Source of the DNA: a virus
Taxonomy: Duplodnaviria > Caudoviricetes
DNA length: 64,000 nt
IMG/VR virus record: IMGVR_UViG_3300028588_000015
Location: 161,548 to 225,547 of that record
Strand: one strand, 5' to 3'
Positions 1-7,107 of this stretch are shown in pieces; the first letter of the stretch is position 1; every line of letters begins with the position of its first letter. Under the pieces are notes generated by a model. That model saw only the letters and a list, made by a program, of their open reading frames with translations. It made no database searches and was not told the origin of the DNA. Made by a program: the position numbers and the translations under genes.

Positions 1-438
1 AGAACGTTCGTTCTGCTTGAGTTTCAGGATCATGCCCCGCAATTGGAACCGCGCATTGTAACAGTCAGTCCAATTCCACGCTGCCAAGGACTTGTCCAGT
101 CGCTTGGTCTCTTCCAGTGCATCGAAGCGCACACTCCCATTGGCATTGAAAGTCCGGGTGAATTGGCCAAAGCCGCAGCCGAATTCACGCGAAGTTTTCA
201 ATGTCGCTTTGAGCTTCCACAAACTCTCTTGCTCCACCAAACCTGCCGAGAATTCCCGCATGTCCATGTCCGCCCAATAGGCGTCGATCTCTTCAACCAA
301 CACCGGCAGGTAGGTCGTCGCATCGTTCGGTAGCTTCACCGATGCTGCGTAGGCTTGGCCGATTGCCATGATGGTAGCAAATGCCAACCACAGCGATGTG
401 ATCAAAACGGGACGATTCTTCGCAATGTACGCTTTCAT
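1..438 (-). CDS. Lytic transglycosylase (SLT-like) endolysin with N-terminal signal peptide/anchor; partial, runs off the window start; absent from the ORF track
   Basis: Manual translation from ATG at 438 (4-bp ATGA overlap with the upstream stop) is open for 146 codons: MKAYIAKNRPVLITSLWLAFATIMAIGQAYA-ASVKLP...AGLVEQESLWKLKATLKTSREFGCGFGQFTR. The xES...GxGxGQFT pattern is SLT-like. Confidence 0.8.
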   Translation of the reverse strand, partial: MKAYIAKNRPVLITSLWLAFATIMAIGQAYAASVKLPNDATTYLPVLVEEIDAYWADMDMREFSAGLVEQESLWKLKATLKTSREFGCGFGQFTRTFNANGSVRFDALEETKRLDKSLAAWNWTDCYNARFQLRGMILKLKQNERS

Positions 439-818
439 TTCAGGAAGTCGCACAGTTGCAGCAGGATCACCATGCGCACCACCCAGGTGAACTTGCTGGC
501 CCAGTAGATATGGGCGGCGCCGATGGGGTCTTGCATGGCCTTCTTGGCGGCCGACTGGATATCGACGCCCGGCTGGGTGGACATGCGAATCCAGAAGATC
601 GACAGTTCGAGCCAGGTGAGGATCGCCACCGCCCGGAAGATGATCAGGATTTCCGGGTAACGGTCCGGCACGCTGCTGCCGTGAAACCGCGCCAGATCGA
701 TCAGAGTATCGAGAATACCCGTCGCGGTCAAAAGCAGGATACCCAGCACCAGCGAGCGCAGGAAAGCGCGCTGGAGAACTTGCCAGGTCTTGTCGTTGAA
801 ACTTTTCAGAATGGACAT
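435..818 (-). CDS. Small membrane protein with 2-3 TM segments, putative holin
   Basis: Hydrophobic stretches AFLRSLVLGILLLTATGIL, ILIIFRAVAILTWLELSIFWI and IGAAHIYW...VILL; translationally coupled to the endolysin gene. Confidence 0.55.
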   Translation of the reverse strand: MSILKSFNDKTWQVLQRAFLRSLVLGILLLTATGILDTLIDLARFHGSSVPDRYPEILIIFRAVAILTWLELSIFWIRMSTQPGVDIQSAAKKAMQDPIGAAHIYWASKFTWVVRMVILLQLCDFLK

Positions 819-848
819 TTTTATTTCCCTAGTTAAAATAAAAGAAGA

Positions 849-870
849 GGAGAGGGCAGTTACCCTCTCC
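849..870 (-). terminator. Intrinsic terminator after the tail fibre gene
   Basis: GGAGAGGG-N6-CCCTCTCC stem followed by a T-rich tail on the minus strand. Confidence 0.7.
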
Positions 871-878
871 TTACAGCG

Positions 879-3800
879 TTAACTGAGGTTGTGCGTCAAG
901 ATATACTTGTCGCCCAACTTAACTTCCAAGGTATCGAGGTCTTCCACGTTCAGTGCCACAAACGTTGTCGGTACATCGATCCTTTTCACACTAATGACTG
1001 GAATCAACTCGCGATTCATCGAGACAAACGCGTCACCGACCACCACATCGCCTGCTTCTTTCCAGCGGTAGACGTTGAGCGCTTTGTCGTACACGAAGTG
1101 CGTGTGCGTCAGCGTCGAATGCAATCCATTCAGTTTCACAGATTTATTTAACACGAAGCGTTTGCACTGCCTCACCGAAGACACCTCGTTTACGCTCACG
1201 CGTGAAATGTTTTCTACCGTCCAGCTTTCCCAGTTATGTACACTGGAATCGAGCATGGTCGGTTCTGAGAAACTTGACACCATATCGCCTTCAACCAGAT
1301 CGTCGACTAGGCGATCACCCAAAGGTGTATGCAGCACTGTCCCTAAGGCAAAACAGCGCCCATCGACAACAAGACTGAAGCTGATCGTCGTCGCCACCGA
1401 TGGGTCATTGGCTTGGCGAACATTGATCGTCACTGTCGCGTTGACCGCGTCGTCGGGACTACTGTCTCGAGAATCGACCAACAGACCGCTGCTTAACGTA
1501 CCCCACGTGCCGTGGGGAATAGACGAGTTTACAAACCCGTTATCCGGGTTGTTATAGTAATCCACCATCACCATGGCTTCGAAGCCGGCTGCATTGCCGT
1601 TCAGGAAGCGGCCCGACTGCGATGGCGTTTTGTCACCCGTACCTTGTCCCGCAATAGCCCACGTACCGTCAGCATTCAGCCTGAACGTCATGGTGGCCAT
1701 GGAACCAGGACTGTACGAATACAGGTTAGCCGGAATGTTGTTAATCCCGCTGCTGAAAGGATTCACATAGCCGCAATACGCGCTCTTGGCTTCCAGCAAC
1801 TGTGCATAGCTACCGCCATTGCCGTCGGCGACAGATTGGTACTTGTCGTACTCTTGGCAGTATACGCTCAGGACTGTGCCCGCTGGCGGGTATTCATCCC
1901 ATCCGGTGATAAATGACACCGCATCGGAATACGGTGAGTTAATTTGTCCCGCAGCGCTGGTGGCATAGTAATGCGCGTAGACCGTATACGTCTTGTGGTT
2001 TTGCAACGCATTCGAGGGGATACTGATACTGCCAGGATCGCCTGCGACGGTGACGTGATCGTAGACTAAATTACCATCGCTGTCGTATACATTGCAGCGT
2101 GAGCCGCCATACGCCACGGTCCCATCGTTATTGTTGATAACCATGGGATTTAAACGAAGCGCGAGGGCGGCGTCTTTACTCGACAAGACAACGCCATTCG
2201 GCGACCACCACGTGGGTTTCGCGAGCGACGGTACTGGTGGTGGTGTATAGCCGCAGGTCGGGCTGTTGGTCTGGTACAGTTGGTTGTATGAACCGCCGTT
2301 GCCATCGGCATATGTACGCCACAGATCAAAACCCTGACAGTACTGGTTCAGCACGGTGCCTGCTGCCGGGGGCGAATAACCGCAGATCGTCGCATTCGTT
2401 TCCACCAAGACCGTGGTGTAACCACCATTGCCGTCAGCGATCTTATTGTACTTATCGTATTCTACGCATGTGTAGCCGATCACAGTGCCTTGTGGTGGAT
2501 ACTGTGGCGGTGGAACGTAGCCACAGTCAAGGCTGTTCTGTTCCAGCAACTGCTCGTGGTCAGTGCCGTCACCATTGGCAATGCGTTGGTACTTGTCTGT
2601 TCCTTTGCAATACGTGGCCAGAACAGTACCAGCGGCAGGTGGTGGTACATAGCCGCATTGAAGGCTATTGATCTCCTTGACAATGTCGGTTTCACCGCCA
2701 AGACCGTCAGCGTAGACTACGTGCAGGGTGAATGTCCCATACTCGCAATAACGACGCAGCTCTGTGCCCGCAGCTGGCGGCGGGATGTAGCCACACTCTA
2801 TGCTCTTTGGTTGAATGAGTTGATCATACTGACCATAGTTACCGTCAGCGTACGTACCCCATAGTTCGGTCGTGCCGGGCTTGCAGTAGCGACCAAGTTC
2901 AGTGCCTGGCGGCGTCGGTGGTACATAACCACAATCACCACTCTTGGCAGCGATGATCTGCTCGAACTCACCATAATTACCATTAGCGTAAATGCCCCAC
3001 AGGTCCACACCCTTGCAGAAGCGGCGCAGTTCAGTCCCGTATGGGATCGGTGGCACATAACCGCATTCGAGACTCTTGGGGTCGATGACCTGCTGGTACT
3101 CGCCATAGTTACCGTCCGCATAGGCGCCCCATTTTTCCACACCTTGGCAATACGTACGCAGCAGCGTGCCATACGGGATGGGTGGGATGTACCCACACTC
3201 AAGACTCTTTTCTTCCCACAGCTGTTCGTATTCCCCATTGCGGCCATCCGCGTAGACGTGCCACATCTGGATATCTTTACAATACGTTCGCAGGAGTGTT
3301 CCGGCGGCCGGGTATGGCGGCACCGTGTCGAATGCCGCAGCAGCCGACCAGTCGGAATAGGCACCTTCGACGTCCGTATACCTGAAACGCCAGTAGTACC
3401 GCTTTGATCCTTGAAGAAGCTCCGGCGGCTGATATGATTGCACGGACGCGTCAACAGTTGCGAGAAATTGAATGTCCGTAAAATCCGACGAGAGCGCCAC
3501 ATGAATCTGCGCTTGTTTTAGTGCGATACCGAAGAGTGAGTAATAATGCGAACCCTCAAACGGTGTTTCTAATTTTACGCCAGTCGCGCCATTTGCCGGT
3601 ACAAGCGCTTTTGGCCGGCGCACTGCGGGCAAAGTCGTGACAAGGTCTGACTTTTTGGCAAACTGGGGATGTGGGTCGGCATTTGCAATGTGCCCCGCCA
3701 TGAGCGCGTCCACGCCCTCTTTGATATGCGTGGCGGAAGTACTGCGCAAGTTTTGAATCACACCCGTCACTTGCAACCGCGCTGCATCTTCGCCAACACT

Positions 3801-4301
3801 ACTGGCCGACTGCATCCGGTGGATCGCGTCTTCCAAATACTCGGTGCCGTAAACTTCCGATACGTGGTGCAGGTGGGGTGCCGGATTAAAGCGTTCGGGC
3901 TTATCGATGATGTCTTCCCAGCGGACATTCTCTTCACCCGACCCCAACTGGGTCAATGCTTCGATCAATTTCTTTTTCGAGTAACTGTCCCAGCGCCCCA
4001 TTGCTTGGTAAGTAATGGTGATGTTATTGCTGACAGCCGGATCGGTAATCAAAACGATGGTGCAAATACGACGGCCGTATTTCTTGGTTTCTTCGGCCAG
4101 CATCTCGCCGGCGCGGTACTGCTGACTTGTCAGTGTTTTACCGGTATCCGCGTCTTTAACAATCAAACTGGCGACAAAGAAAGCACCGTAATCGGGCACT
4201 GCAATACGAACAGGGCGATTAACCAGCACATGCGGCTCATTCGCCACCTTGTTTGAAGGCGCTTTGCCGCTTCGGTCCAACGGGAAATAAATAGAATCCA
4301 T
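879..4301 (-). CDS. Long tail fibre-like virion protein: shared N-terminal attachment domain, FN3-like domains, nine Cys-pair repeats, C-terminal Hint domain
   Basis: N-terminus YFPLDRSG..SNKVANE is shared with three upstream paralogs; HxxxxDPHPQF fibre motif; YWRFRY..YSDWS FN3 motif; repeats; terminal CFALGT...THTHF...LTHN. Confidence 0.8.
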   Translation of the reverse strand: MDSIYFPLDRSGKAPSNKVANEPHVLVNRPVRIAVPDYGAFFVASLIVKDADTGKTLTSQQYRAGEMLAEETKKYGRRICTIVLITDPAVSNNITITYQAMGRWDSYSKKKLIEALTQLGSGEENVRWEDIIDKPERFNPAPHLHHVSEVYGTEYLEDAIHRMQSASSVGEDAARLQVTGVIQNLRSTSATHIKEGVDALMAGHIANADPHPQFAKKSDLVTTLPAVRRPKALVPANGATGVKLETPFEGSHYYSLFGIALKQAQIHVALSSDFTDIQFLATVDASVQSYQPPELLQGSKRYYWRFRYTDVEGAYSDWSAAAAFDTVPPYPAAGTLLRTYCKDIQMWHVYADGRNGEYEQLWEEKSLECGYIPPIPYGTLLRTYCQGVEKWGAYADGNYGEYQQVIDPKSLECGYVPPIPYGTELRRFCKGVDLWGIYANGNYGEFEQIIAAKSGDCGYVPPTPPGTELGRYCKPGTTELWGTYADGNYGQYDQLIQPKSIECGYIPPPAAGTELRRYCEYGTFTLHVVYADGLGGETDIVKEINSLQCGYVPPPAAGTVLATYCKGTDKYQRIANGDGTDHEQLLEQNSLDCGYVPPPQYPPQGTVIGYTCVEYDKYNKIADGNGGYTTVLVETNATICGYSPPAAGTVLNQYCQGFDLWRTYADGNGGSYNQLYQTNSPTCGYTPPPVPSLAKPTWWSPNGVVLSSKDAALALRLNPMVINNNDGTVAYGGSRCNVYDSDGNLVYDHVTVAGDPGSISIPSNALQNHKTYTVYAHYYATSAAGQINSPYSDAVSFITGWDEYPPAGTVLSVYCQEYDKYQSVADGNGGSYAQLLEAKSAYCGYVNPFSSGINNIPANLYSYSPGSMATMTFRLNADGTWAIAGQGTGDKTPSQSGRFLNGNAAGFEAMVMVDYYNNPDNGFVNSSIPHGTWGTLSSGLLVDSRDSSPDDAVNATVTINVRQANDPSVATTISFSLVVDGRCFALGTVLHTPLGDRLVDDLVEGDMVSSFSEPTMLDSSVHNWESWTVENISRVSVNEVSSVRQCKRFVLNKSVKLNGLHSTLTHTHFVYDKALNVYRWKEAGDVVVGDAFVSMNRELIPVISVKRIDVPTTFVALNVEDLDTLEVKLGDKYILTHNLS
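1760..3322 (-). repeat. Intragenic protein repeats of ~44 aa: eight in tandem (3322-2235) plus one isolated copy (1895-1760)
   Basis: Consensus PxxGTxLxxYCxxxxxWxxYADGxxGxYxQLxxxxSxxCGYxP read directly from the translation. Confidence 0.9.
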
Positions 4302-4315
4302 ACCAACTCCCTAAG

Positions 4316-5305
4316 TTACGAAGTGGTGAACGATGTCGCGGTAGACCACGGGGACCATTCGCCTTCGGTATTTTGATAAGACACGCGCCAGAAGTAACGC
4401 GTATTTGCAGACAGCGCCGACGCGTGTGTGTAGTTCTGTACTGCACCCAAGGTAACATCGGCGACCATGTTCGTGAAGTCACGCGCCAAAGCGATTTGAA
4501 TCCGCATCGCCTTTTGCGGAATACCGTAAAGGGCACGATAGGCATTGCAAGCAAAGGCCACGTTATTGCGGGTGACCGTTTTGGTTTGGTCCCCTGGGCT
4601 GACGTTCTTGGGGCGGCGCACTTGGGCGTATGCCAATAGCAGGGCGTTGCCAACTTCCGACTTCTTCAGGTAATACGGGTGAGCATTCGCGTCGCCCACG
4701 TGCGCATCCATGAGGCCTTGTGCGTCTGTCGGGATGCCCGTGCCATATGGACCCAAAATGTCACTGGCGTACTTCAACACCGCGTCGTAGGTGGACACCC
4801 TACCATTGACGATCGTGCCGCTCACTGCGTTCATTGCATTTTCCAGACTGGCAAAACCGAATTCATCGTCCGTAAAGTCAGCAGGGGTGAGTGCAGGTGG
4901 GTGGGGCAGAACGTCCGTCCATGCGGGTGACCGGGCACTGGCCAAACGGCGGGTAAGCATGGCAACCACGTCCGTTTCTGGCACACTGTACGGGCCGCCG
5001 ACCACTTGGTAATTCACCTTGACCGTATTGCTCACTGCGGGATCAGTAATGACAATCAAGCCGCAAATGTCTTTCTTGTACTTTGAGGTGGGTATGTTGT
5101 AACGCCATGCGGCGTAGTACTGGCTTTTTGCCAGAGGCTGATTGTTGGCAGTATCTACCAGTACCAGCGAGGTAGCGAAGAATGCACCAAAACGCAGCGC
5201 GAAAACCCGCAGACCTGTGTTCGGCACAGCACAGACTTCCCCTTGGACCAAATTGTTGACACTGGTACCGCTAGGGTCAAGTGGGTAAGTATCGAGAGAC
5301 GACAT
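4316..5305 (-). CDS. Virion tail fibre/baseplate-associated protein (paralog family), C-terminal FN3-like domain
   Basis: YPLDPSG..NNLVQGE N-terminus; HVGDANAHPYY; RYFWRVSY..EWSPWS. Confidence 0.7.
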   Translation of the reverse strand: MSSLDTYPLDPSGTSVNNLVQGEVCAVPNTGLRVFALRFGAFFATSLVLVDTANNQPLAKSQYYAAWRYNIPTSKYKKDICGLIVITDPAVSNTVKVNYQVVGGPYSVPETDVVAMLTRRLASARSPAWTDVLPHPPALTPADFTDDEFGFASLENAMNAVSGTIVNGRVSTYDAVLKYASDILGPYGTGIPTDAQGLMDAHVGDANAHPYYLKKSEVGNALLLAYAQVRRPKNVSPGDQTKTVTRNNVAFACNAYRALYGIPQKAMRIQIALARDFTNMVADVTLGAVQNYTHASALSANTRYFWRVSYQNTEGEWSPWSTATSFTTS

Positions 5306-5320
5306 GACGACTCCTTCTTA

Positions 5321-6319
5321 TTAAACGGCGCGGGTACTGAAGTACGTCACGGCACTCCAGTCTGACCACGACAGGTCGTCCGACTGGTACCGGGCGCGCC
5401 AAAAGAACATGGTGTTGGCGGTTAGCAAACTGTCGATTTGGTAGGTATCCGTAACCCCTTCCAGTACAACATCTTTTTCGAGCGTGCCAAACGAATTGTC
5501 GCGGGCAATTTGGACTTGGATTGCTTTTTGCGGATTGCGGTACATCGAATAATACGGCGATAGCTTGAATGCCAGATTACGCTGCACACCCGCTGCACCC
5601 TGTGAGGGTGTGATTCCCGCAGGAGTGCGTACCGTGAAGACGACGCTGTCGACTTTAGTGCGCAAAATGTACTGGCTATGTGCCATGGGGTCGACCGCGT
5701 GTTTGGCCAGCAGTTTCGATGCCAAAGCCGATGCAACTGCGGCGAGCGACTGCTTCATCGTGTCGACGTAGCGATAGTAGTTGTCGTAATCGATTACCGA
5801 AGAAACTTCCATGGCCATGCGCGCACGCTCTACCGCATGAACAACTGGTTCGAAACCATAGATATCGCCGAGATCGTGAAGGTGGCGGACGGGGTTGAAT
5901 TCAGTTGGGCGATTTTCGATTGCCATGTATTCGACAGAACGGCTATCGAGTTTTGCGATCTCGATCATGTCTAGAATTGGCAACAGTAAGTCTTCGTATT
6001 CGCCACCCACCACTTGGTACTGCAATTCCACGGTGTTACTGACGTGCGGGTCGGTAATCACAATTACTGCGCTGACCTCTTGACTAAAGCGTGCTGTCGG
6101 CTCAGCAATAATTCGGCTAATGATGTAATGCACACCACGCTCCAGTACGGTGTTACTGGCGCTGTCACGGATTTTCAGCGAGGCGGAGAAGAAAGCACCA
6201 TAGGTCGGCACGATTGCTCGCCGTGCACGGCTTTCAAGGGTACGTGCTTCTCTTTGGACGAGATTACCCGGACTCTTTCCGGATGGATCGAGTGGATAAC
6301 GGTGAAGATATCGGGACAT
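5321..6319 (-). CDS. Virion tail fibre/baseplate-associated protein (paralog family), C-terminal FN3-like domain
   Basis: YPLDPSG..GNLVQRE; HAVDPMAHSQY; FFWRARY..SWSDWS. Confidence 0.7.
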   Translation of the reverse strand: MSRYLHRYPLDPSGKSPGNLVQREARTLESRARRAIVPTYGAFFSASLKIRDSASNTVLERGVHYIISRIIAEPTARFSQEVSAVIVITDPHVSNTVELQYQVVGGEYEDLLLPILDMIEIAKLDSRSVEYMAIENRPTEFNPVRHLHDLGDIYGFEPVVHAVERARMAMEVSSVIDYDNYYRYVDTMKQSLAAVASALASKLLAKHAVDPMAHSQYILRTKVDSVVFTVRTPAGITPSQGAAGVQRNLAFKLSPYYSMYRNPQKAIQVQIARDNSFGTLEKDVVLEGVTDTYQIDSLLTANTMFFWRARYQSDDLSWSDWSAVTYFSTRAV

Positions 6320-6405: not shown

Positions 6406-7107
6406 TCAGGTATGGTAAGCCTGCACGTGGGCGGCTATCGCATCGGCTGCTGCCTTCGTCGCCATGGCTTGTGCTTGGGCATTCGTGGGTGCATCCAGCT
6501 GGGCGGCCGTCGTACCGTGGGGGTTGTTCTTGTCGCTCTTGTGACTGGCCAAGTCTTGACCGCCGCGCTGCGCAATTGTTGCAGTCATGGCGTTCAGGGC
6601 TGTTACCAGCGCTTCCATGCCTTTGAGATCGATGAGGCTGTATTCATGATCGATCACCGGGAAAGCATTGGGTAGGTTGATGAGTTGTTCCCACGACGTC
6701 ACGCGCGGGTTACCGATACGATTGGCCAGCAATTCAGCCAGTTCGGTATCACTTGGGACCCATCCACCACCGACCGTATTGTAGACCAAGGTGACCTTGC
6801 CGACCAACGCGGTGTTCAAAAAGCTAATGGAACCCCAGATCGGTTTGGCAGTGCTGTAGGACGCGTCGACAAAAGGATGAGAACAATAGTAGTCGATGTT
6901 CTTGTCCAGCGTACGCGGTGTATTCGTGACGCTGTCAACAAACACAATCGACAATGAATCTTCAAAGAACGGCGCGACCTTGGGGACGATGAAGTAGTAA
7001 TCACGCGGATTGGCGCCCGACAGGATTTGCTGTTCCCCGGTGATCTTGTTAGAGACTTTCGTACCCGTCGGATCGAACGGATACGACGTGGCGGTAATTG
7101 TGGACAT
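6406..7107 (-). CDS. Virion tail fibre/baseplate-associated protein (short paralog)
   Basis: YPFDPTG..SNKITGE; HKSDKNNPHGTTAAQL fibre-type motif. Confidence 0.7.
   Translation of the reverse strand: MSTITATSYPFDPTGTKVSNKITGEQQILSGANPRDYYFIVPKVAPFFEDSLSIVFVDSVTNTPRTLDKNIDYYCSHPFVDASYSTAKPIWGSISFLNTALVGKVTLVYNTVGGGWVPSDTELAELLANRIGNPRVTSWEQLINLPNAFPVIDHEYSLIDLKGMEALVTALNAMTATIAQRGGQDLASHKSDKNNPHGTTAAQLDAPTNAQAQAMATKAAADAIAAHVQAYHT

Follow-up and report, generated by a model that had tools for sequence, protein, structure and literature searches.

In this uncultured giant phage of the phiKZ-like kind, the 1,140-aa tail fibre (P0002) carries an intact Hint domain at its C-terminal end. We give a probability of about 55% to the reading that this domain is a catalytically intact, type A bacterial intein-like (BIL-like) cap, which excises itself from the C-terminus of the fibre tip module. 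Positions below are those of the window, i.e., the whole stretch of 64,000 nucleotides that was analysed. The fibre gene is laid out as follows.

879..4301, minus strand: fibre gene P0002, 1,140 aa (ORF translation)
3657..4301, minus strand: N-terminal anchor domain, residues 1-215 (phrog_2163, E = 7e-43; phrog_23008, "tail fiber protein")
2217..3326, minus strand: eight tandem repeats of ~44 aa, residues ~326-695, each with two Cys and a C-G-Y-x-P-P end
1752..1901, minus strand: ninth copy of the same repeat type, residues 801-850
1356..1751, minus strand: pre-Hint tip domain, residues 851-982, a beta-sandwich (alignment; model pLDDT 88)
848..871, minus strand: terminator-like hairpin with 10 pairs and a trailing T-run, immediately after the stop of the gene

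P0002 is the fourth and longest member of a tandem array of four paralogues that have one N-terminal anchor domain in common. This anchor is also common to virion and tail-fibre proteins of phiKZ-like jumbo phages, and a tblastn search with P0002 matched 178 jumbo-phage records solely through it; a Megablast search of 50,697 phage records with the gene gave no match. The ~44-aa Cys repeats matched no Pfam family and are present also in P0160, P0161, P0004, and P0013. In the alignment, the tip domain travels together with the subfamily to which the Hint of P0002 belongs. Structural matches to the tip-domain model were generic only (Ig/pilin-like, Z of about 6), and an ESM Atlas feature search with this domain returned no usable match. 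The tip domain is presumed to be the receptor-binding end of the mature fibre.

The Hint domain and its key residues map to the following positions.

888..1355, minus strand: Hint (type A BIL-like) autoprocessing domain, residues 983-1138, 156 aa (profile and model)
1353..1355, minus strand: Cys983, Hint position 1, nucleophile of the N-S acyl shift (recomputed codons; alignment)
1104..1115, minus strand: block B, T-L-T-H, with Thr1063 and His1066 (family alignment)
888..893, minus strand: block G, His1137-Asn1138 (recomputed codons; alignment)
879..887, minus strand: tail Leu1139-Ser1140 (887-882) and stop codon TAA (881-879) (recomputed codons)

The predicted scissile bond is Arg982-Cys983. 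A sequence-only reading of the same DNA had placed a Hint domain at the fibre C-terminus, with Cys983 at 1355-1353 and His-Asn at 893-888, and recomputation returned exactly these positions. It had also stated that no Cys, Ser, or Thr occupies position +1, which is indeed Leu1139. Its assignment of the TxxH motif stood only in part: the T-H-T-H-F-V from which the motif had been taken is present (residues 1065-1070), but the register was two residues off, Thr1065 and His1068 falling in variable alignment columns, and the true pair is Thr1063 and His1066.

Hint_2 (PF13403) scored 19 bits on P0002 against a gathering cut-off of 28.4 and covered only block A, while PT-HINT (PF07591) gave no match to the protein in the Pfam search. 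The protein passed no Pfam cut-off at all, and an NCBIfam search of the protein returned nothing, which is why standard annotation misses the domain. A phmmer search of the PDB with the single sequence also gave nothing meaningful. As these three approaches were insufficient, detection required a family profile, which matched residues of the C-terminal stretch with an E value of 8e-56. In phage records, tblastn with the Hint domain had Phage NCTB as its sole match (E = 3e-3). The homologue P0004 scores 29.5 bits for Hint_2, and the family profile detected no second Hint domain elsewhere in the genome.

The sequence-only reading had proposed profile searches and structure prediction as a check of the fold, and both came down on the side of a Hint. 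The family profile ranked the bacterial intein-like domain 2lwy first in the PDB (E = 1.8e-15), with inteins appearing only from an E value of 4e-6 and the Hint of the 8w20 toxin protein as the second-best PDB sequence match, and AlphaFold2 modelled the domain with a pLDDT of 95.3. Foldseek with this model also placed 2lwy on top (E = 7e-9), and all 34 PDB matches with E values of 1e-3 or lower were Hint domains. By VIA-align, 30 solved Hint structures reached a Z score of at least 8, the maximum being the 18.7 of 2lwy (rmsd 1.6 A, 132 of 138 residues). BUBL BIL2 of Tetrahymena was the second-best structural and profile match. Given the family profile, the PDB profile, the AlphaFold2 model, and the structural matches, the Hint match of the C-terminus is far beyond chance, and this region has the pseudo-twofold beta-fold, the Cys1, and the block B Thr-x-x-His of the Hint superfamily. 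A prediction of a three-copy Hint complex scored 0.00, which counts neither for nor against trimerisation; the known Hint domains are, to our knowledge, monomers.

Relatives were sought among 1.8 billion proteins, and more than 150, taken as clusters at 50% identity, were found. Catalytic residues were counted in 131 complete domains with identities down to about 25%. Position 1 is Cys in 124 of these, Ser in one, and Thr in one, with gaps in five; the block B Thr column holds Thr in 116/131 and Ser in 12/131, and the His column holds His in 124/131. In block G, His is found in 131/131 domains and Asn in 130/131. Catalytic residues that stay nearly invariant even where identity falls to about 25% bear the mark of selection for chemistry and not for shape; as judged from the alignment, purifying selection on the catalytic set is strong throughout this large family of terminal fibre Hints. 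Members cap tail collar fibres, central tail fibres J, collagen-like fibres, and jumbo-phage baseplate fibres, so that the terminal fibre Hint appears widespread. When 66 members were searched with Pfam, PT-HINT (PF07591) was found in 41 (E < 0.01) and Hint_2 in 32.

The terminal position is a property of the family as well: among the 130 domains in which tails were counted, at most 13 residues follow the Asn in 111 (85%) and at most 3 in 45. Position +1 is Ser or Thr in 9/130, Lys in 29/130, and Cys in none. In the closest subfamily, at least 90% of members have Ser at position +2, in a tail of the pattern x-Ser(-Ala). Position -1 is Arg in P0002 and Gly in most other members, and the identity of this residue may affect reaction rates.

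Among orthologues, no fibre segment is better conserved than the Hint (59, 54, and 51% identity), and the mid region and the tip domain are the least conserved ones (32, 34, and 30% for the tip), a distribution that would fit an enzyme adjoining a fast-evolving receptor-binding end. A different phage, one with a T4-type baseplate (gp25, gp53-like), carries the same tip-plus-Hint cassette on one of its fibres at 45% identity; tip and Hint travel as a cassette between unrelated phages. A search of viral contigs with a tip-plus-Hint profile yielded 4 loci, too few for neighbourhood analysis. The two phage lineages that carry the cassette have different genes downstream of it, in the case of P0002 one for a small membrane protein behind the terminator, and a conserved downstream partner gene was rejected because the neighbours vary by lineage. 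Salmonella phage Sen-NF (108 kb) was likewise rejected as a case of a T5-like fibre with a Hint in place of S74, since its locus resembles the tail module of Y3 and Alexandra.

One homologue, P0161, naturally lacks the Hint. It has the same repeats and the same tip, ends 7 residues past the position aligned with Asp980, and shows no Hint remnant downstream. Since P0161 ends near the junction, a free C-terminus is viable there, which indirectly suggests that P0002 could reach the same end by self-release.

An alternative is that the Hint escapes processing and remains part of the virion as a distal structural or binding domain, its catalytic residues owing their conservation to structural constraints or recent ancestry. 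In RefSeq, Alexandra gp112 and related Hint-ending tail proteins from jumbo phages in culture are named "virion structural protein," phrog_38766 bears the same label, and cleavage is mentioned in none of the RefSeq and phrog records so labelled. However, such a label covers the whole gene product and is silent on which part sits in the virion. That the nucleophile, block B, and His-Asn are so strictly kept, Cys being replaced by Ser or Thr only, argues against a retained Hint, as does a Hint-less homologue that ends at the junction, and we consider retention improbable.

The distribution of the domain could also be that of a passenger, either a self-removing, near-neutral Hint that serves as a conserved 3' DNA block for the swapping of tips or the relic of a selfish mini-intein. 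The best-conserved segment does flank the least conserved one, the cassette is found on unrelated fibre scaffolds in unrelated phages, and P0161 manages without a Hint. Yet the domain comes without a homing endonuclease and without a conserved insertion site, and tip and Hint co-vary as one cassette, whereas a recombination handle would stay constant while tips are swapped. A passenger would still need to excise itself and would thus differ from a cap in purpose, not in mechanism; we regard this explanation as very unlikely.

Taken together, the intact Hint fold, the catalytic set, the lack of a +1 nucleophile, purifying selection, and the terminal site make self-release of a C-terminal cap the most reasonable reading. 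The analysis shows the fold, catalytic residues, conservation, terminal position, and modular spread, and we infer the actual chemistry and the purpose. After translation and folding of the Hint, Cys983 would attack the carbonyl of Arg982 in an N-S acyl shift assisted by Thr1063 and His1066, giving a thioester. Asn1138, aided by His1137, would cyclise and free the Leu-Ser dipeptide. The thioester might then be resolved by water or a thiol, leaving a fibre that ends in ...V-V-D-G-R, or, as proposed for type A BILs, by the amine of the freed Leu-Ser, leaving ...G-R-L-S. By either route, the beta-sandwich tip domain would terminate the mature fibre and the 17-kDa Hint would be discarded. The invariant His-Asn and, in the closest subfamily, the near-invariant +2 Ser suggest a role for the C-terminal reaction as well. 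The same residues speak against the cap, since N-terminal cleavage alone would not need His-Asn or an x-Ser(-Ala) tail, and Hedgehog Hints manage without them. The benefit of the Hint is probably that it assists or masks the tip during folding and assembly, by analogy with the S74 chaperone; against this stand the monomeric state of known Hint domains and P0161, which indicates that a tip can do without a Hint.

The thioester at Arg982 could instead be attacked by an external nucleophile, so that the tip becomes covalently coupled while the Hint is released. Proposed acceptors are lysines on other virion proteins or on an adjacent fibre chain, small molecules, and amines or hydroxyls of the host surface. 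The tip of a receptor-binding fibre is the place where such chemistry would matter, Lys follows the Asn directly in the 29 relatives counted above, and the Hedgehog Hint, which transfers its N-terminal domain to cholesterol, offers a precedent. BUBL BIL2, the second-best match, offers another, as it joins the C-terminus of its upstream domain to lysines of several substrates by an isopeptide bond without ATP (PMC8616854). Against ligation, only two residues follow the Hint of P0002, leaving no adduct-recognition region; no conserved partner gene accompanies it, its neighbour being the small membrane protein behind the terminator; and the alignment shows no conserved acceptor lysine in the tip. 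In addition, a thioester-prone bond is unlikely to last on free virions, and the Hint-less homologue shows a tip working without a Hint. We consider ligation unlikely on this balance. Slightly more doubtful is its specific form, in which a BUBL BIL2- or Hedgehog-like reaction would couple the tip to a subunit lysine (tip lock) or to an amine or hydroxyl of the host envelope (receptor capture), with His-Asn and the x-Ser(-Ala) or Lys tails taking part in a timing or acceptor mechanism. If the thioester did serve ligation and not hydrolysis, it would form the first system for covalent modification at the receptor-binding tip of a phage.

The known routes of phage-fibre maturation rely on separate chaperones or on the self-cleaving S74 chaperone. 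A self-excising Hint cap, as a thioester-based end module, would represent a third, chemically distinct, and so far uncharacterised route of fibre maturation. Small terminal Hints that are independent of a +1 nucleophile could also find use as self-cleaving tags or as tools for ligation.

S74 is a C-terminal, self-cleaving, and discarded module of phage fibres such as endosialidase tailspikes and T5 L-shaped fibres. Its resemblance to the P0002 Hint is one of function only, as it has an unrelated fold and an unrelated chemistry, with a Ser-Lys dyad in an obligate trimer, and S74 (PF13884) was found neither in the P0002 protein nor in the whole 225.5-kb record. Hedgehog/Hog domains (1at0, 6tyy) have the same fold as the P0002 Hint (Z = 16.4), are also C-terminal in their precursor, and free an N-terminal functional part through the Cys1 thioester. 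However, in them a sterol/adduct-recognition region follows the Hint and the terminal His-Asn is missing, and the P0002 family is the opposite on both counts. BUBL BIL2 (6tmm, 6y75) is a Hint that resolves its thioester by aminolysis; it sits between ubiquitin-like domains, whereas P0002 has neither a ubiquitin-like nor a downstream domain, and no known acceptor. The PT-HINT (PF07591) of polymorphic toxins precedes and frees a C-terminal toxin, while only Leu-Ser lies past the P0002 Hint, and toxin release was rejected for want of a toxin domain there. A canonical class 1 intein was rejected as well, because position +1 is Leu and there is neither a C-extein nor an endonuclease; the Hint-less P0161, too, just stops close to the junction. 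The terminator hairpin behind the stop implies that no hidden C-extein is read, and read-through was rejected on this ground and because homologues keep the stop in the same place.

The closest known systems are the type A BIL domains, reportedly described by Amitai in 2003 and Dassa in 2004, which in vitro cleave themselves at both junctions and splice to some extent. These are defined by a terminal His-Asn without a +1 nucleophile, and cleavage products predominate (PMC4031507). The sequence-only reading had held that such domains cleave and do not splice when the +1 nucleophile is missing; this is too simple, since type A BILs can also splice, the amine freed by Asn cyclisation attacking the thioester (PMC4031507). 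The Clostridium thermocellum BIL (2lwy) resembles the P0002 Hint in having Cys1, the block B Thr and His, and a terminal His-Asn that no +1 nucleophile follows. Differences are the low identity of about 22% and block F, which is V-E-x-x-D-T in P0002. P0002 thus has the His-Asn and the non-nucleophilic +1 residue (Leu) of type A BILs and is nearer to BILs than to inteins. It departs from them in context: described BILs lie inside bacterial secreted or variable proteins with a real, substantial C-terminal flank, whereas the P0002 Hint ends a phage fibre and has a two-residue tail.

In full-text literature searches, we found no functional study of a terminal Hint on a phage fibre. GenBank annotations do record the domain in cultured phages, as "contains intein domain" for Y3 and "large intein domain protein" for NCTB. 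The cultured-phage kin are Erwinia phage Y3 gp110, Alexandra gp112, Dickeya AD1, Yersinia fHe-Yen9-02, and Phage NCTB BN7874_132. Their terminal Hints belong to the same family as that of P0002 but to a different subfamily (about 23 to 31% identity), and they sit on collagen-like or other scaffolds. Culturable carriers of a terminal fibre Hint thus exist in Erwinia phages Y3 and Alexandra and in Dickeya AD1.

The gene for the tail fibre protein P0002, whose product ends in the Hint domain (residues 983-1138), is located among phiKZ-type RNA polymerase beta-like, baseplate assembly and virion genes in the final 64 kb of the 225.5-kb IMG/VR virus record. Codon positions of the Hint landmarks were recomputed and agree with those of the sequence-only reading.

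Fibre gene, flanking features and anchor-sharing paralogues
879..4301, minus strand: fibre gene P0002, ORF of 1140 residues
1355-1353, minus strand: Cys983
893-888, minus strand: His1137-Asn1138
887-882, minus strand: Leu1139-Ser1140
881-879, minus strand: stop codon TAA of P0002
871-848, minus strand: hairpin of 10 pairs with T-run, directly 3' of the stop
435-818, minus strand: next gene after P0002, with its own start, for a small hydrophobic protein
2217-3326 and 1752-1901, minus strand: nine tandem ~44-residue repeats, two Cys each, ending C-G-Y-x-P-P (residues 326-695 and 801-850)
4316-5305, minus strand: paralogue sharing the anchor, 329 aa, phrog_2163
5321-6319, minus strand: paralogue sharing the anchor, 332 aa, phrog_2163
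6406-7107, minus strand: paralogue sharing the anchor, 233 aa, phrog_2163

No C-extein could be read beyond the P0002 stop, which is followed by the hairpin and T-run and then by the separate gene; past the fibre's terminator, this gene encodes 127 residues with several hydrophobic stretches.

P0002 consists of an N-terminal anchor, an Ig-like domain, the nine repeats, a second Ig-like region, a 130-residue beta-sandwich tip and the Hint domain. Residues 1 to ~215 match phrog_2163, phrog_13857 and phrog_23008 (virion, tail and tail-fibre proteins), and this part alone matched 178 jumbo-phage records by tblastn, with Pseudomonas, Erwinia, Ralstonia, Xanthomonas and others as hosts. The three shorter paralogues directly upstream have the ~200-residue anchor in common and differ at their ends, an arrangement that is syntenic in a related locus (L003). 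Since they carry the same N-terminal domain, P0002 belongs to a group of fibres attached to the baseplate; the three paralogues look like a set that is interchangeable at a single attachment site. The repeats matched no Pfam family; they recur in other jumbo-phage fibres with or without a Hint (P0160, P0161, P0004 and P0013) and may form a shaft module stabilised by disulfides or metal.

On P0002 itself, Pfam gave only Hint_2, at 19 bits where the cut-off is 28.4, with the match confined to block A, and NCBIfam gave no match. Searching 1.84 billion representatives exhaustively with phmmer returned over 150 relatives, of which 34 had E below 1e-10. In an alignment of 66 of these, Cys1 and the terminal His and Asn were all invariant, and members matched PT-HINT (41), Hint_2 (32), Intein_splicing (24) and the Hedgehog Hint module (16). 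Against solved structures, the alignment profile matched the Clostridium thermocellum bacterial intein-like (BIL) domain 2lwy (E 1.8e-15), as well as the toxin-associated Hint 8w20 and Tetrahymena BUBL BIL2, true inteins appearing only from E 4e-6 onwards. AlphaFold2 run on the same alignment gave a model with a pLDDT of 95.3 and a pTM of 0.89, for which Foldseek ranked 2lwy first (E 7e-9), followed by BIL2, inteins and Hedgehog 1at0; VIA-align superposed it on 2lwy with Z 18.7 and rmsd 1.6 Å over 132/138 residues. Profile search and structure prediction thus both bore out the Hint fold proposed from the sequence, with 2lwy as best match.

We then counted the catalytic residues in 131 complete domains from cluster representatives, aligned to the family profile.

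Conservation of catalytic positions among 131 domains
Position 1: Cys 124/131, Ser 1, Thr 1, gaps 5
Block A Thr: 115/131, plus Ser 9
Block B Thr: 116/131, plus Ser 12
Block B His: 124/131
Block F Asp: 119/131
Terminal His: 131/131
Terminal Asn: 130/131

Thr1063 and His1066 (T-L-T-H) form the block B pair of P0002. The string T-H-T-H-F-V, taken for block B in the sequence-only reading, is present, but the Thr1065 and His1068 that it implies fall in variable columns; this register shift is a small correction and leaves the overall picture unchanged. That the Hint stays unprocessed on the virion as a knob is hard to square with such a conservation pattern.

Among the 130 complete domains with His-Asn, at most 13 residues follow the Asn in 111 and at most 3 in 45; the +1 position holds Ala (30 domains), Lys (29), many aliphatic residues, Ser or Thr (9) and no Cys. 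In long family members, the N-terminal part is recognisably that of a tail fibre (tail collar fibre, central tail fibre J and others), and at least 7 cluster representatives have a terminal Hint together with the jumbo-phage anchor of P0002. We class the P0002 Hint as a BIL-type Hint domain used in phage fibres as a terminal cap. Full-text literature searches returned no functional study of a terminal Hint on phage fibres, only annotation notes. Two to four tandem Hint domains, with junctions such as V-H-N-K-G-G-C-F, occur in seven relatives (P0033, P0047, P0054, P0089, P0094, P0105 and P0125), which are arrays and not terminal caps.

A collagen-like tail protein ending in a Hint of the same broad family is carried by cultured "hairy" jumbo phages that infect Erwinia and Dickeya (~55 records), which are ready experimental models; their Hint belongs to another subfamily than that of P0002. 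Gp112 of Erwinia phage Alexandra (L008:1972-3414) is collagen-like and ends in V-H-N plus 10 residues, and gp110 of Erwinia phage Y3 (L009:1532-2968) is annotated "contains intein domain"; Dickeya AD1, Yersinia fHe-Yen9-02 and Phage NCTB are further cultured carriers in that other subfamily. In Phage NCTB (L001), a gene is annotated "large intein domain protein", and the best BFVD match to the P0002 Hint, the nameless A0A1C3NF88, has 1304 residues, the length of that gene's product. The next two matches, A0A1C3NFC5 and A0A1C3NFC6, bear UniProt accessions close to that one, so there may be several Hint-ending proteins in Phage NCTB (1304, 153 and 506 aa).

The closest relatives (a 20-sequence alignment) share a cassette made of the beta-sandwich tip, the junction x-A-D-G-x-Cys-Phe-Ala and a C-terminal His-Asn-x-Ser(-Ala), the Ser at +2 being kept in at least 90%. 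With this co-travelling tip and x-Ser(-Ala) tail, the subfamily is distinct, and P0002 places it on the fibre set of a phiKZ-like jumbo phage. The cassette occurs in a syntenic jumbo phage (P0003), at 45% identity on a fibre from another phage, whose baseplate genes include gp25 and gp53-like ones (P0004), and in a 350-residue protein of a 375-kb phage (P0006), indicating that it is swapped between scaffolds. In comparison with the orthologues P0003, P0007 and P0012, no segment is better conserved than the Hint (59, 54 and 51% identity), while the adjacent tip reaches 32, 34 and 30%, which fits purifying selection on an enzyme that adjoins a fast-evolving end for receptor binding.

Type A BILs are defined by a terminal His-Asn and an absent +1 nucleophile, and give mostly cleavage products with some splicing, which arises when Asn cyclisation frees an amine that then attacks the N-terminal thioester (PMC4031507). 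Because the P0002 Hint has every sequence-level feature of this type, we commit to a predicted self-excising cap. An N-S acyl shift at Arg982-Cys983 would be followed by cyclisation of Asn1138, setting Leu-Ser free, and the thioester would be resolved by hydrolysis or by the freed dipeptide; either way, the mature fibre would terminate in the tip domain. We argue that the C-terminal reaction probably belongs to the function, since the His-Asn is invariant and short tails are conserved, neither of which a pure Hedgehog-like N-cleavage needs. The thioester could instead serve for ligation, as in BUBL BIL2, the second-nearest structure, which ligates to lysines in exactly this way (PMC8616854); with no acceptor seen, and both an adduct-recognition region and a conserved partner gene absent, we consider this unlikely.

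A Hint-less fibre ending near the junction exists in nature. P0161 (732 aa; L016:3001-5199, on a 315-kb phage contig) has the same repeats as P0002 and a tip domain 34% identical, and stops 7 residues beyond the site aligned with Asp980, itself 2 residues ahead of the P0002 Hint junction. A profile search in all six frames found no Hint remnant downstream, so a fibre ending there is viable. Such an end would be expected if the mature P0002 product also stopped there; P0161 is a useful comparison partner.

A Hint acting as a recombination handle or passenger would still require self-excision, and bears on purpose. The S74 domain is absent from this genome; the Hint may assist in folding or assembly, or shield the tip, by analogy with the S74 chaperone, to which it is unrelated.
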